Below are positions 11,277 through 16,100 of a stretch of DNA of 16,100 bases, in pieces; within the stretch, counting starts at the first letter, position 1; each line of letters begins with the position of its first letter. Source of the stretch: a virus; the UHGV virus genome UHGV-0340572. One strand, given 5' to 3'. Made by a program: the position numbers and the translations under genes. The notes under the pieces were generated by a model. The model did no database searches. It saw only the letters and a list, made by a program, of their open reading frames with translations, and was not told the origin of the DNA.

Positions 11277-12665
11277 ATGGCTACTTGGCAAGGAACAAAC
11301 GGCGGATTGTTGGCTGGTATCGGCGGCGTCAACTCAAACGCTCCGAGCGTAAATGACATCGGCAATACGCTTCAGCTTATCAGGCAGAACAATGATATTG
11401 AGCGTTCAGGCGCTAACAATGTTGGGCTGACTGCTTTGCAAGGCCTTTCAGGTATTGCGGGGGTGTTTCAGCAGGAAAAGCAGGCTCAGCGGCAGAAAGA
11501 ATTTCAGCAGGCATACGCTAATGCTTATGCGTCTGGTGATCGCGGTGCTTTGCGTCAGTTGGCTACTCAATATCCAGAACAGATTGAATCCGTTCGTAAA
11601 GGCATGGGATTCATTGATGAAGACCAGCGTAATTCTATCGGCACCTTAGCGGCTGGCGCACGCCTTGCGTCATCGTCTCCAGAAGCAATGCAATCATGGC
11701 TGCAAAACAACGCCAAGGAACTGACTCGCGTCGGTGTTGACCCTAACAGCGTTGCTCAGATGTATCAGCAGAACCCTTCAGGATTTGGTGAGTTTGTTGA
11801 TCACCTTGGAATGGCTGCTCTTGGTCCAATTGATTACTTCAATGTTCAGGACAAGATGGCTGGTCGTGAGATTGATCGCGGGAAACTTGCAGAGACAATC
11901 CGCAGCAATCAGGCTGGCGAGGCGCTAACAGCACGAGGCCAGAACATCACGATGCGCGGTCAGGACTTATCTGCTTCTACTGCGCGACGAGGTCAGGATT
12001 TGGCAATGCAGCGAGCGTCAACAAGAGGAATCGCTGGGAATGATGAGCGTACAGTTCAGTTATCAGATGGCAGAACTGTAACGGTAGGCGGGAAGCTTCA
12101 TGGCGCTGGGGCTAATGCGTTCTACGAAGGCATCGACAACGATGGGAATATGGTTCGCGTCCCTGCCAGTTCAATCGCTGCGCCTGCAACATCGTCTGCA
12201 TCAGCACAAAACTATGCCATGAAGAAGGATATCGACGCGATCGCAAATGCAGACGCTTCTGCTCTCGATTTCATGACAGGAATGACAGGTGGTGCAGGTA
12301 ATCCAGCAATTGGTGCTGATGTTCGCAGCCGATTAACGGGAAAAGAGCAGCGCCAGTTATATAACTCAGCACAACGTATTCAGGGCAGAATGCAGAATCA
12401 GGGTGTGGCGGCAGCAAGGGACATGGGTGCCAGTGGTATTAACACCGTTGCAGAAGCGAAGATGTATTTTCAGGGGATGCCGCAGGTTGACTATTCAAGC
12501 CCGGAGGCTATGCAGCAGTCGATTCGTGAGATTCAGGAATACACCAACAATTACAACCAACAATATAACGTTAATGTTGGTAAATCTCAGCGGCAGCAAT
12601 CTCAACCTGCACAGGTATCACAGCCAGCAGCCAGCAGTAACTTTTCTTCACTATGGGGTGATTAA
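11277..12665 (+). CDS. 20: ejection protein gp20-like, 462 aa
   Basis: Position after gene 7 and size near P22 gp20 (471 aa); RBS AAGGGG 5 nt upstream; stop overlaps the next start (TAATG). Confidence 0.82.
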
Positions 12666-14662
12666 TGGCTAAAGCATGGAAAGATGTTATCGCCTCTCCA
12701 CAGTATCAGGCGTTAGCACCAGAACAAAAAGCGCAGGCTCAGGAGCAATACTTCAATGAAGTCGTTGCCCCGCAAGCCGGAGAAAATGCAGAGCGGGCTA
12801 AGCAAGCTTTCTATGCTGCCTATCCATTGCCATCTGTGCAGCCAGTGGGGACACAGCAACCAGTAGCACAGCAACAACCACAGCAAAGTGGATTCATGTC
12901 TGATCTTGGCGAAGCAGTAAAAGAGACTGGTCGCGGAATGGTGCAGGCTGGCGTGAACGTGGCAAACATACCTGCATCAGTTGCCGATGCTGTAACAAGC
13001 GCGGCGGCTTGGGCTGGCGGTAAACTCGGCATTGGCGATGGTACATATCAACCAGCACCACGAGTAACAACGCAGGGATTAGAGCAGGACTTTGGCCTTC
13101 AGCAAGGTGCGCTGACTCCACAAACGACAGAGGGAAAGGTATTTGCTGAAGCATTGCCTTACCTCACTCCTGCTGGCGTTGAGAGAGCGGCGGTACAGGC
13201 ACCAACACTTGCTGGTCGAATTGCTCAGGGGGCAACTCGCCTTCTAGCAGAAAACGCAGTTGGATCACTTGCTGCAAACAGTGCGAAAGATGATGCGGAA
13301 GCACTCGCCACCGATTTAGGCGTTGGTGTGCTGGCTGGCGGTGCTATTAACGCTGCCGGACGTGGATTAGGTGCTGCTTATCGTGGTGTTCGTGGTTCGA
13401 TAGCACCAGAAGCTCAACAGGCTATCAGGTTTGCAGAGCGTGAAGGAGTTCCTCTGCACACCACAGACCTGTTACAGCCTACTTCCCGCGTCGGGAAAAT
13501 GGCGCAGACTACAGCAGAAAATATCCCCCTGGCTGGCACAAGCGGAATGAGAGCAACGCAACAGGAAGCGAGAAGCCAGTTGGTGCAGAGATTTGCCGAT
13601 AAATTCGGTGAGTATGATCCAGCGGTTGTTATTGACAGCCTTAAAGCGAAAACATCAGGAATTCGTCGTGCCGCCGGTAATCGACTGGAGCAGGTTCAGA
13701 ATGCTATGGCTGGAGTAAACATTCAGCCTGCGCGAGCAATTCAGCAGATTGATACAGAAATATCTAATCTGCAGAAGCTTGGTAAGGTTGCTGATAACGA
13801 GACTATTTCAAAACTTCAGTCATATCGTGATGAGCTTGTTCGCAATGCTGGTCCTGATGGTCCGGTAAATCTGGATTTGAAGCAATTAAGCGATCTGCGC
13901 AGCCAGTTCAGAATGGACGTGAAGGGTGAACGACCAGTGTTACCAAACCGTTCCGATGCTGCCATTCAGCGCGTTTACAAGGCGATGACAGACGATATCA
14001 ATGGTGCCATTGGTCAGAATCTTGGCAACGATACTCTCCGTAAATATCAGCAGGCCAATGCCGTATACGCTGACGAAGCGGCGAAACTAAAGAATACCAG
14101 GCTGAAGAATGTTCTCATGAAAGGCGACCTGACGCCGGAAGTTGTCAACAACATGCTATTCAGCAAGAACAAATCGGAAATTAAGACGCTGTATAACTCA
14201 GTTGGTCGCGTTGGAAGAGCGCAAATGCGCAATGGCATCATTGGAAAGGCGATAGAGAAATCAGGTGGTTCACCTGACCAGTTCCTTCGACAGCTTAACA
14301 TCCTGCAAAACCAGACTGGCATCACATTTAAAGGTCAGGAAGCCGCTTATCTGAAAGGATTGAAAAACTACCTTCAGTCCACTCAGCAGGCAGCAAAAGC
14401 GGCAGTAACAACACCAACAGGGCAGCAAACCATCCCGTTCATTATCGGATATGGGACGGCAATGAACCCGGCGACAACTGGCGCAGCAGTAAGCTACGGA
14501 CTTCTTACTCGCGCCTATGAGAGCGAGCCATTCAGAAATGCAATGCTCCGAATGGCAAACACACCACGCGGATCAACAGCGTTTGAGAAAGTCATGCAGC
14601 AGGCGCAAAAGGCCATTAACGCCCTGACTCAGGGTGCCAAGTCTGATGCGTTGTCAGAATAG
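12665..14662 (+). CDS. 16: ejection protein gp16-like, 665 aa
   Basis: Last gene of the ejection-protein trio by synteny; Ala/Gly/Gln-rich; longer than the 609 aa I recall for P22 gp16. Confidence 0.82.
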   Translation: MAKAWKDVIASPQYQALAPEQKAQAQEQYFNEVVAPQAGENAERAKQAFYAAYPLPSVQPVGTQQPVAQQQPQQSGFMSDLGEAVKETGRGMVQAGVNVANIPASVADAVTSAAAWAGGKLGIGDGTYQPAPRVTTQGLEQDFGLQQGALTPQTTEGKVFAEALPYLTPAGVERAAVQAPTLAGRIAQGATRLLAENAVGSLAANSAKDDAEALATDLGVGVLAGGAINAAGRGLGAAYRGVRGSIAPEAQQAIRFAEREGVPLHTTDLLQPTSRVGKMAQTTAENIPLAGTSGMRATQQEARSQLVQRFADKFGEYDPAVVIDSLKAKTSGIRRAAGNRLEQVQNAMAGVNIQPARAIQQIDTEISNLQKLGKVADNETISKLQSYRDELVRNAGPDGPVNLDLKQLSDLRSQFRMDVKGERPVLPNRSDAAIQRVYKAMTDDINGAIGQNLGNDTLRKYQQANAVYADEAAKLKNTRLKNVLMKGDLTPEVVNNMLFSKNKSEIKTLYNSVGRVGRAQMRNGIIGKAIEKSGGSPDQFLRQLNILQNQTGITFKGQEAAYLKGLKNYLQSTQQAAKAAVTTPTGQQTIPFIIGYGTAMNPATTGAAVSYGLLTRAYESEPFRNAMLRMANTPRGSTAFEKVMQQAQKAINALTQGAKSDALSE

Positions 14663-14731
14663 CTTCGCAAACACCAGAAACGTGCAAAAACCAAATATGT
14701 AGAACGCAATATTCATCATATCTCTTTGCAT
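14654..14731 (-). CDS. candidate small hydrophobic peptide, 25 aa (MQRDMMNIAFYIFGFCTFLVFAKLF)
   Basis: On the - strand, 20 nt after the mnt stop: GGAGG, 4-nt spacer, ATG, then 25 codons forming one hydrophobic, transmembrane-like segment; the TGA stop overlaps the last codons of gene 16 antisense. Too short to be in the ORF track. Could equally be a deletion remnant. Confidence 0.3.
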   Translation of the reverse strand: MQRDMMNIAFYIFGFCTFLVFAKLF

Positions 14732-14751
14732 AAATCCTCCGTAATGGATGG

Positions 14752-15012
14752 TTAGTTGCTGTCTTTTTTATATAGCTCCTTGAGCGTATCAAAGACAATT
14801 TTCTTAACCATATCAGATTGTTGTTCTGCCATACGCTCTGCATCGTCAATGTAAACTGATGCAGAGCTTTGTTTATCCAATGATTCCTCAATCGCTGCAA
14901 TTATCTCTGAGTTCAGCGACCTGTTATTCATCTTCGCACGCTGCTTAATTTTCGCGTGAAGTTCATGCGGAAGTCTCAAGTGAAACTGCGCCTCGTCGTA
15001 TTTGCTGTACAT
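14752..15012 (-). CDS. mnt: Mnt-like ribbon-helix-helix repressor, 86 aa
   Basis: The track ORF (14752-15510, -) is over-extended across the tailspike start. From the internal ATG at 15012 the protein MYSKYDEAQFHLRLPHELHAKIKQRAKMNNRSLNSEIIAAIEESL...DDAERMAEQQSDMVKKIVFDTLKELYKK matches P22 Mnt as I recall it (HFNFRMPMEVREKLKFRAEANGRSMNSELLQIVQDAL...NDAERLADEQSELVKKMVFDTLKDLYKK). GAGG lies 8 nt upstream on the - strand. Confidence 0.8.
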   Translation of the reverse strand: MYSKYDEAQFHLRLPHELHAKIKQRAKMNNRSLNSEIIAAIEESLDKQSSASVYIDDAERMAEQQSDMVKKIVFDTLKELYKKDSN

Positions 15013-15147
15013 CCTTGATGCCTCACCAGTTGGGTGGAATGGCATCGTAAAACCTACTGTACAAATCAACAATCGTACCGTTTCGGTATGCAACAAACAC
15101 CAACCGTAGCCACGCTGCGGCGATTCCTTGTATCTGGAGCAAATTAA
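15013..15147. promoter_or_regulatory. divergent intergenic region between mnt and tailspike; probable promoter/operator region
   Basis: 135-bp non-coding gap between divergently oriented genes. Contains the inverted repeat TACCG-TTT-CGGTA (15076-15088), the palindromic hexamer TGTACA (15058-15063) and the imperfect 17-bp palindrome CCGTAGCCACGCTGCGG (15103-15119). I could not pick out convincing -35/-10 hexamers by eye. Confidence 0.4.
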
Positions 15148-16100
15148 ATGACAGACATTACAGCCAATGTGATTGTATCGATGCCTTCGCAACTCTTCAC
15201 TATGGCGCGTTCTTTTAAAGCTGTAGCCAATGGCAAAATTTATATCGGTAAAATTGACACTGACCCTGTAAATCCAGAAAACCAGATTCAGGTTTATGTG
15301 GAGAACGAAGACGGCTCTCACGTTCCTGTTTCGCAACCAATCATCATTAATGCTGCTGGATATCCGGTATATAACGGACAGATTGCCAAATTCGTAACTG
15401 AGCAAGGCCATTCTATGGCTGTATATGATGCGTATGGCACGCAGCAGTTCTATTTCCCTAATGTGCTGAAGTACGACCCTGATCAATTTGAGATTAGGCT
15501 TTCTAATCAAGACGGCGCTGGTCTTGTTGGGATTATGCCATATGGCACGGTACAGGATGCCATCAAATGGGTTGTCCCCGAGGTATTCCCCGGAAGTAAT
15601 GCGTCAGAAAAATTACAGGCAGCTGTAAATTATGCGGTTGCAAACAAAACGAGAGTTGTAGCATCAGGTGTGTACGATGTAACGGCCCCCGTCACCATCC
15701 CAGGAGACATCATTATCGATGCTTCTACTGGAGAATTTACCTTCAATGGCATTGATTATATTTTCCATCCGCTTGGCGCAAAATCAGTAGAGATTATCGG
15801 TGGTAAGTTCACCGCAAATGCATACCACACCCAGCGTCCTCAGGTAATTTTCAATGATTACCCTGATGGGCTGGCGAATTTGCCAACGCGAGTGGTGATA
15901 AAAGATATGCAATGCTTTAACTGCGGTGTTGGCTACATCATGGTTAACTGTCAGGACCCAACCAGCGTACATGTCTCAGTTGATAATAACTACTGCAAGA
16001 CTGATGACAACACAGATCAGTATATCTCTGATGCAGGAATGTCAGGTGAACAGGGTGAGGTATATCCATATCTGATGATTCTTGGCAACACGACTGCATC
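15148..16100 (+). CDS. 9: tailspike protein, 5' portion (truncated at window end); P22-type N-terminal head-binding domain with a different receptor-binding domain
   Basis: ATG at 15148 with GGAG 9 nt upstream. Translation MTDITANVIVSMPSQLFTMARSFKAVANGKIYIGKIDTDPVNPENQIQVY...NVLKYDPDQF matches the conserved P22-family tailspike head-binding domain. After about residue 113 the sequence (IRLSNQDGAGLVGIMPYGTVQDAIKWV...) no longer resembles P22 gp9 as I recall it. Open to the window end, so absent from the ORF track. Confidence 0.85.
   Translation, partial: MTDITANVIVSMPSQLFTMARSFKAVANGKIYIGKIDTDPVNPENQIQVYVENEDGSHVPVSQPIIINAAGYPVYNGQIAKFVTEQGHSMAVYDAYGTQQFYFPNVLKYDPDQFEIRLSNQDGAGLVGIMPYGTVQDAIKWVVPEVFPGSNASEKLQAAVNYAVANKTRVVASGVYDVTAPVTIPGDIIIDASTGEFTFNGIDYIFHPLGAKSVEIIGGKFTANAYHTQRPQVIFNDYPDGLANLPTRVVIKDMQCFNCGVGYIMVNCQDPTSVHVSVDNNYCKTDDNTDQYISDAGMSGEQGEVYPYLMILGNTTA

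Follow-up and report, generated by a model that had tools for sequence, protein, structure and literature searches.

A 25-codon open reading frame (ORF) lies on the minus strand of UHGV virus genome UHGV-0340572, between the homologue of the DNA ejection gene 16 and an mnt-like repressor gene, and it raises a simple question: does it encode anything and, if so, what? The DNA analysed here (16,100 nucleotides, referred to as a whole as the window) comes from a P22-like (Lederbergvirus) prophage of E. coli and covers the end of its late operon. As an earlier note made from the sequence alone had stated, in phage P22 the corresponding interval holds sieA and another ORF (sieA, orf59a and mnt are found there on one strand, between gene 16 and the arc/ant genes). 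The note had proposed either a deletion scar left by a lost membrane-protein gene or a genuine small membrane peptide co-expressed with the repressor, both with a bearing on superinfection immunity. We find that this mini-ORF belongs to an unannotated gene family under purifying selection at the protein level, and that its product may be a miniature superinfection-exclusion protein. The elements directly concerned are these:

14654-14731, minus strand: mini-ORF (ATG start, 25 codons, TGA stop), product MQRDMMNIAFYIFGFCTFLVFAKLF
14736-14740, minus strand: Shine-Dalgarno sequence GGAGG of the mini-ORF, four bases 5' of the ATG
12665-14662, plus strand: gene 16 homologue, encoding a DNA ejection protein (gp16) of 665 amino acids (aa), Sf6/L type
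14654-14662: tail-to-tail overlap of the mini-ORF and gene 16, 9 nt including the gene 16 stop
14752-15012, minus strand: gene for an mnt-like ribbon-helix-helix repressor of 86 aa, directly upstream of the mini-ORF

The layout described in the earlier note was borne out by the sequence: the ORF and its GGAGG are where it placed them, the ATG lies 20 nt past the mnt stop, the last codons run antisense into the 3' end of gene 16, and the interval between the gene 16 and mnt stops, which it put at about 90 bp, is 89 bp. The predicted product MQRDMMNIAFYIFGFCTFLVFAKLF opens with a short polar head (MQRD), continues for about 18 hydrophobic residues and ends in KLF. An ORF of 25 codons is by itself within chance (61 ORFs of at least 20 aa were listed in the surrounding 4 kb), and the significance of this one comes from comparative data.

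Two scans of IMG/VR provided the comparison. The first, with a pattern fixing only the last eight codons of gene 16, gave 116 usable copies of the 25-aa form found in the window, and the second gave 71 copies of a 23-aa form. The ATG position and the open frame were kept in all 116 copies of the former, which comprise 52 DNA variants and 36 peptide variants with no insertions or deletions (indels), and 70 of the 71 copies of the latter (27 variants) were intact. Taken together, frame, ATG and Shine-Dalgarno sequence are kept in about 186 of 187 copies from several genera. Nearly all copies of the 23-aa form carry GGAGG(A/G)TTT-ATG, and those contexts of the 25-aa form that lack mnt likewise show purine-rich motifs at Shine-Dalgarno distance. 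The difference in length between the two forms amounts to a single in-frame indel of 6 nt (two codons). Only two damaged copies were seen, one contig (L203, IMG/VR 3300036772_000035) encoding the truncated MERDLLNFAFLIFGLVMG followed by a stop, and one 25-aa-form contig in which the stop is lost (TCA to TCT on the plus strand) and the ORF extended.

The 25-aa form was found in E. coli/Shigella and the 23-aa form in Salmonella, Erwinia, Klebsiella and others. A tblastn search with the latter placed it at the same spot in phages L, ST64T, ST104, SPN9CC, g341c, MG40, BTP1, HF4s and Klebsiella phiKp_30. For more distant relatives the C-terminus of gp16 was searched in one genome per species, and the equivalent site was found to encode MQRDMMNIAFYIFGFYAFLAIVNLF in Escherichia sp., MERDWLNFAFLIFGICVGVALFT in Ca. 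Erwinia dacicola and MDRDLLNFAFLIFGICVGVALFA in Escherichia sp. ESNIH1 and Pseudescherichia. The family follows the pattern M-[QEDN]-R-[DN]-x-L-N-[IFL]-A-F-[YL]-I-F-G-[FLI]-[CV]..., continued by a hydrophobic tail with one Lys/Arg near the end, and variation within the 25-aa form falls mostly at residues 5, 6, 8 and 22. Two other ORFs near gp16 homologues were noticed by eye. In Yersinia aleksiciae (L130) an ORF of about 41 aa with a GTG start (VLEIASFVALAAIVYLIRQVG...) is convergent to gene 16, about 80-210 nt after the gp16 homologue, and in Vibrio furnissii (L133) a co-directional ORF, about 60 nt after the gp16 homologue, has an N-terminal helix (..NGIVAFLIFYLIL..) followed by a coiled coil.

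The sequences surrounding the mini-ORF show which of its two neighbours is its constant partner. When the window was aligned to Sf6, IME10 and a prophage of E. coli, the homology with Sf6, a phage without mnt, extended from gene 16 through the start codon of the mini-ORF and then ended. This codon is also where homology among the mosaic relatives breaks off. At least five unrelated sequences lie directly upstream of the ATG among copies of the 25-aa form, distributed as follows:

mnt, with GGAGG: 62 copies
gene for a lipoprotein of about 160 aa on the same strand: 30 copies
Sf6-type spacer leading straight to the tailspike gene: 21 copies
two other spacers: 3 copies

In phage L, orf62 (on the late strand) and a bidirectional terminator separate the mini-ORF from mnt, and in Sf6 and BTP1 the mini-ORF is present without any mnt. 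The overlap with gene 16, by contrast, is the same in every homologue. An upstream mnt is thus just one of several arrangements, and what stays constant is the 3' end of gene 16: it is this end of the Sf6/L-type gene, and not mnt, that the mini-ORF accompanies. Thus, of the small membrane peptide co-expressed with mnt that the earlier note had envisaged, the peptide is supported and the link to mnt is incidental. The lipoprotein region found upstream of some mini-ORFs (first gene MKKSLLIIPLLLAGC...) is located about 115-1154 nt past the gene 16 stop in one of the 30 relatives (L008, IMG/VR 651053021), with L006, L011 and L048 as further examples; in some relatives with this context a second lipoprotein gene, divergent and with a weak PEGA-like match, is also present. 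Pfam and PADLOC assign neither lipoprotein to a family, and both genes are candidates for further exclusion or conversion genes.

A protein-coding gene should also leave its mark on the kind of substitutions that accumulate. Changes were counted along a minimum spanning tree of the unique sequences, in codons outside the gene 16 overlap only, and compared with 2000 position shuffles that preserved the type of base change. The counts were:

23-aa form: 155 synonymous and 54 non-synonymous changes, 4 stops; 41/12/160 changes at codon positions 1/2/3
25-aa form: 33 synonymous and 52 non-synonymous changes, 0 stops; 28/19/38 changes at codon positions 1/2/3

For the 23-aa form none of the 2000 shuffles reached 155 synonymous changes (69 were expected). 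For the 25-aa form 22 synonymous changes and 2.4 stops were expected (P = 0.0055 for the synonymous changes, P = 0.0015 jointly with the absence of stops). The remaining five frames had fewer synonymous changes and 2-9 stops. A rough ratio of non-synonymous to synonymous rates (dN/dS) derived from these counts is about 0.18 for the 23-aa form. The mini-ORF thus bears the generic marks of protein-coding sequence, with frame, start codon and ribosome-binding site kept, a bias towards synonymous change and an indel that stays in frame, and the family is under purifying selection at the protein level. The earlier note had held that a genuine peptide should be conserved codon by codon in relatives, and such conservation is what the copies display, with the frame kept in 186 of 187 and an excess of synonymous and third-position changes.

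An RNA element or terminator at this locus was considered and ruled out: Rfam gave no match at the mini-ORF region, no terminator-like site was found there, RNAalifold on the family returned 0 pairs and no consensus structure, and the single-sequence folding energy was ordinary (z = -0.28). Because of the substitution pattern, the in-frame indel and this lack of RNA structure, translation of the mini-ORF is very likely, and we hold with high confidence that it is a real small protein gene. The gene would specify a single-helix membrane peptide of 25 residues, to judge from its hydrophobic stretch.

The same data bear on the simplest alternative, namely a chance ORF or a functionless deletion scar, of sieA or of some other lost membrane gene. 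ORFs of such length are common, P22 has sieA at this very place, and the peptide finds its best, if weak, local match in SieA's last transmembrane helix (6 of 19 residues identical, ungapped). However, some 186 of 187 copies keep frame, ATG and Shine-Dalgarno sequence, synonymous changes are in excess and the sole indel is in frame. In addition, blastn-short, tblastn and blastp searches against the P22 16-mnt interval, SieA, orf59a and HkcB gave chance-level matches only, nucleotide similarity to the P22 16-sieA-orf59a-mnt interval did not go beyond 11-mers, Pfam at E<=1 returned no match of the peptide to the SieA family (PF26849) or any other, and hhalign of the peptide family against the SieA alignment gave a probability of 3.6%. 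A SieA remnant was rejected on these chance-level alignments and the hhalign result. The earlier note had named alignment with the P22 sieA region as the sign of a scar; homology to SieA, orf59a or the interval was not detectable, and an ORF intact in about 186 contigs, behind at least five upstream contexts in several genera and with coding-type substitutions, makes a scar or a chance ORF extremely improbable.

This gene has escaped annotation. None of the phage and RefSeq records inspected marks the mini-ORF, and across the region, which is present in 258 of 5426 complete E. coli genomes (about 5%), gene 16 is the sole annotation. Exact look-up of six peptide variants in a collection of 15 billion proteins found none of them, and Pfam, PHROGs, NCBIfam and PADLOC gave no match for either the 25-aa or the 23-aa form. 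In the literature we found no match for the peptide strings and no paper proposing a small-protein reading of STnc6030, the transcript to which we now turn.

Evidence on function comes from the orthologue in the Salmonella prophage BTP1. There, the lysogen-expressed transcript STnc6030 (mean of about 90 transcripts per million) is antisense to the tailspike gene's 5' end and to the gp16 homologue gene's 3' end; it was annotated as 786 nt, with Northern species of about 480-500 nt, and was classed as non-coding solely because none of its ORFs exceeds 60 aa (Owen et al. 2020, PMC7067206). When expressed from a plasmid, STnc6030 conferred total immunity to BTP1 and none to P22, whereas its over-expression left the titre from spontaneous induction unchanged, which the authors flagged as unexplained (PMC7067206). 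The five escape phages carried four single-nucleotide polymorphisms (SNPs) within 36 bp of the gp16 gene, all of them missense (PMC7067206). A review from 2025 continues to describe STnc6030 as an antisense RNA.

We mapped the published cloning primers on BTP1 and obtained an insert of exactly 786 nt (NC_042346 13703-14488). Within it, tblastn located the orthologue MERDLLNFVFLIFGLVVGKLLFA, of 23 aa and with the Shine-Dalgarno sequence GGAGGG, at nt 407-475 of the transcript (BTP1 14014-14082), and this is the sole ATG ORF of the insert with a strong Shine-Dalgarno sequence. The peptides align, the overlap with the gene 16 stop is the same and so is the Shine-Dalgarno spacing, establishing orthology to the STnc6030 locus. 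The promoter is a different matter, with the -10 element altered in the window and mnt inserted between the ORF and the tailspike gene. The two loci share an antisense orientation to an Sf6/L-type gene 16 at its 3' end and a tailspike gene nearby, and differ in that BTP1 has no mnt, starts its transcript inside the tailspike gene and carries the 23-aa form.

The region hit by the escape mutations corresponds to nt 649-686 of STnc6030 and to gp16 codons 583-595 (ILGIGTVTNPALV). The species of about 480-500 nt, if it shares the mapped 5' end, would stop just past the ORF (nt 475) and short of this 'seed' at nt 649-686, and the size of the Northern bands is thus suggestive of their not reaching it. 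At the protein level, a four-way alignment of gp16 from P22, BTP1, the window and Sf6 (P22 and BTP1 being 38% identical) places BTP1 residues 583-595 opposite R540-L552 of P22. P22 SieA, an inner-membrane protein encoded at the same position as the mini-ORF, blocks DNA injection, and escape of P22 involves G532W and P546S in gp16 as well as changes in gp20 (Leavitt et al. 2024, PMC10883804). P546 falls inside the aligned segment and G532 lies 8 residues before it. That study makes no mention of BTP1 (PMC10883804). The homologous segment of the window is:

14441-14479, plus strand: gp16 codons 593-605, IIGYGTAMNPATT, homologous to the BTP1 gp16 escape segment

Among 102 unique sequences, the C-terminal 150 residues of gp16 show two variable patches on a conserved background, one the escape-homologous segment (GYGTAMNPATTGAAVS) and the other, more variable, near the C-terminus (KAMQQAQKAINSLAQ). 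This variability is not decisive as evidence for a target segment; homology to the escape site makes residues 593-605 the putative target of the peptide in the window.

These observations can be joined into one explanation, to which, taken as a full chain, we give about an even chance: the mini-ORF would encode a miniature inner-membrane superinfection-exclusion protein that acts on gp16-mediated DNA delivery. The peptide would be made in the lysogen, in the window by read-through from Pmnt, as mnt ends 20 nt upstream with no terminator between, and in BTP1 from the STnc6030 promoter. Co-expression with mnt in the window is plausible, and the two are probably co-transcribed. The peptide would then insert as a single helix into the inner membrane and interfere with the C-terminal region of the incoming gp16, and DNA of phages with a matching gp16 type would not be delivered, with no effect on induction of the resident prophage. 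Such an entry block accounts for the unaffected induction, for escapes that are all missense in gp16, and for the non-exclusion of P22, whose gp16 is different. In our judgement the published phenotypes of STnc6030 fit it better than an antisense mechanism. We infer, tentatively and with slightly less than even confidence, that the exclusion credited to the STnc6030 RNA is really due to an encoded peptide of 23-25 residues, which would be the smallest exclusion protein known; the same guarded confidence attaches to the rest of that joint reading, in which one helix would read the short variable gp16 segment where P22 escapes SieA and so impose a block specific to the gp16 type. The bearing on superinfection exclusion that the earlier note had foreseen accordingly has indirect support from the literature, by way of STnc6030.

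The published alternative is that STnc6030 acts as a cis-antisense RNA, the lysogen transcript pairing with incoming gene 16/late mRNA and destabilising it, while the small ORF owes its translation or conservation to something unrelated, or is the second function of a dual-function transcript. In its favour, the transcript is expressed in the lysogen and antisense to gene 16, and the cloned fragment excludes (PMC7067206). The escape SNPs also lie in the region complementary to the annotated 3' end of STnc6030, and P22, without nucleotide similarity there, is not excluded. It does not, however, explain why over-expression fails to lower the induction titre (PMC7067206). All four SNPs are missense and hit the stretch of gp16 that is homologous to the SieA-escape site, and the major Northern species of about 480-500 nt may fall short of the 'seed'. 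Pairing over 786 otherwise perfectly complementary nt would normally survive a single mismatch. Finally, in the window the RNA has no consensus structure, the substitutions are of the protein type and the BTP1 promoter is not conserved. We consider this antisense explanation, perhaps as part of a dual-function RNA, to be unlikely.

Several points weigh against exclusion by a peptide and should be set beside the evidence for it. Single-base sensitivity is possible in kissing-loop antisense systems, and the RNA model of the authors of the BTP1 study may thus be right. We know of no exclusion protein this small, and the peptide family has no detectable similarity to SieA (the hhalign probability given above). 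Translation and membrane location are read from sequence for all members of the family, and constraint on the 25-aa form is just moderate and weaker than on the 23-aa form (rough dN/dS about 0.57, derived from the substitution counts). The peptide of the window is about 39% identical to that of BTP1, from which all the functional evidence comes. The -10 element of the STnc6030 promoter, TTCAAT in BTP1 and also in P22, is TTCAGC in the window and in Sf6; since the BTP1 -10 is not conserved, the ORF's location behind mnt is the sole basis for deducing expression in the lysogen for the window. A promoter scan identified no promoter in the window, although such scans of the window, Sf6 and BTP1 missed even the experimentally defined BTP1 start site. 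The Northern species of about 500 nt could be 5'-processed rather than 3'-truncated, and the escape phages were sequenced over just a 787-bp amplicon (PMC7067206).

A small membrane protein may, of course, serve another purpose than exclusion, for instance as an envelope-affecting lysogenic-conversion 'moron' or as an accessory factor of gp16. The coding signature and the hydrophobicity say nothing on function, and the strict linkage to gene 16 would also suit a partner in the phage's own cycle. The mini-ORF is convergent to the late operon, however, and so is not expressed together with gene 16, and its BTP1 orthologue sits in a lysogen transcript whose sole known phenotype is exclusion; a role of this kind seems to us rather improbable.

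Alternatively, the product could be a type I toxin-like peptide, restrained by overlapping antisense transcription and serving prophage maintenance or abortive infection. Type I toxins such as Ibs, ShoB, TisB and Ldr are hydrophobic single-helix peptides of 18-35 aa that are missed by annotation pipelines. The peptide resembles them as a small hydrophobic single helix, its size and composition being like those of Ibs, ShoB and TisB, and its 3' end is overlapped by a convergent transcript. It differs from them in having no dedicated small antisense RNA (no Rfam match and no opposite-strand promoter were found) and no translational occlusion, as its strong Shine-Dalgarno sequence is exposed and its mRNA forms no stable structure (z = -0.28). 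As antisense partner there is just the late mRNA, silent in the lysogen, and PADLOC, Pfam and NCBIfam gave no match. The BTP1 experiments showed no sign of toxicity either, constitutive expression of the BTP1 fragment being tolerated with normal lawns (PMC7067206). A toxin is therefore very unlikely, and the exclusion peptide remains the reading that we prefer.

The rest of the window places the mini-ORF in its genomic surroundings. The nearest relatives are E. coli prophages (94-98% identity), phage IME10 (92%) and Sf6. The remaining features of the region are the following:

11277-12665, plus strand: gene 20 homologue
135 bp between the mnt homologue and the tailspike gene: spacer
15148-16100, plus strand: 5' part of the tailspike gene with a conserved head-binding domain, cut by the window end

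The mnt product is a true Mnt homologue with both the Arc-like N-terminal domain (Pfam Arc PF03869, 8.3e-15) and the Mnt C-terminal tetramerisation domain (Repressor_Mnt PF11423, 3.3e-14). Between gene 16 and the tailspike gene of the window arc, ant, sieA and orf59a are all absent. The mnt homologue is in effect an orphan, without arc or ant and with just the 135-bp spacer before the tailspike gene. One possibility for its target is a rightward promoter into that gene. A perfect palindrome with 5-bp arms, TACCG-TTT-CGGTA (15076-15088), was spotted by eye in the spacer and could be the operator of this Mnt variant; an inverted-repeat search of the spacer at seed 6 found none. The sole sigma-70-like match of the region (14900-14927, minus strand, ATAACA-16-GATAAT, 9/12) falls within the coding sequence of mnt, some 170 nt upstream of the mini-ORF; it may represent an internal promoter or simply reflect the conserved NNRSLNSEII codons.

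Two further observations concern the neighbouring late genes. In many E. coli genomes the RefSeq label of the window's gp16 homologue is 'lytic transglycosylase domain-containing protein'; Pfam at E<=0.01 found no domain in it, and the label may say more than the sequence supports. Opposite the tailspike head-binding domain, a long antisense ORF (window 15148-15510, minus strand, e.g. MALLSYEFGNLSVIYRISSS...) recurs at every locus and is most likely a by-product of sense-strand codon usage; in BTP1 the 5' part of STnc6030 is transcribed from this antisense region.

Whatever its function, the family adds a conserved unannotated gene to the well-studied temperate phages Sf6, L, ST64T and BTP1 and to P22-like prophages of E. 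coli, and it warns that long prophage 'ncRNAs' (non-coding RNAs) deserve screening for very small ORFs. Two independent sets of escape mutants (BTP1/STnc6030 and P22/SieA) converge on one short segment of gp16, which points to where the ejection protein is vulnerable at the inner membrane. The peptide reading offers a simple, testable reinterpretation of a published and still-cited RNA-mediated exclusion and, if true, would resolve the authors' paradox of unaffected induction. A helix of 25 residues able to block DNA delivery would also be a minimal tool for studying how podovirus ejection proteins cross the cytoplasmic membrane.

Among known systems, the proteins encoded at the same place in other P22-like phages are inner-membrane or membrane-anchored (SieA in P22; HkcB in HK620, epsilon34 and CUS-3). 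SieA proteins (PF26849), of about 160-200 aa, span the membrane with several helices and carry FxRYPxEAxxFNK as a conserved motif on the cytoplasmic side (PMC10883804). Like sieA, the mini-ORF runs antiparallel to the late operon of a P22-like prophage, in the interval bounded by genes 16 and 9, but its product has 25 aa, one hydrophobic stretch and no such motif; SieA excludes phages with several gp16 types, whereas the BTP1 STnc6030 clone does not exclude P22. The gene hkcB abuts another type of gene 16, in HK620 (locus L206, 1382-1711), epsilon34, where it is gene 14 (L208, 1093-1416), and CUS-3 (L209, 1604-1927). It is convergent to the HK620-type gene 16 and begins at the base following the gene 16 stop. 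HkcB (109 aa; phrog_5962, no function assigned) combines a hydrophobic helix at its N-terminus with a coiled-coil-like tail. The peptide shares with it the convergent gene abutting the gene 16 stop and the hydrophobic helix, and differs in lacking the long tail and any sequence similarity. This suggests that each gene 16 type carries along its own convergent membrane-protein gene, be it sieA, hkcB or the mini-ORF. Further afield, HK97 gp15 and T4 Imm are small membrane proteins that stop the entry of DNA of related phages, and escape from HK97 gp15 maps in an injected or channel-forming phage protein; compared with the peptide both are several-fold larger, unrelated in sequence and from other phage groups. 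A prophage inner-membrane protein that excludes related phages is thus of a known kind; a version of 23-25 residues, unrelated to SieA and encoded inside an 'ncRNA', would be new.

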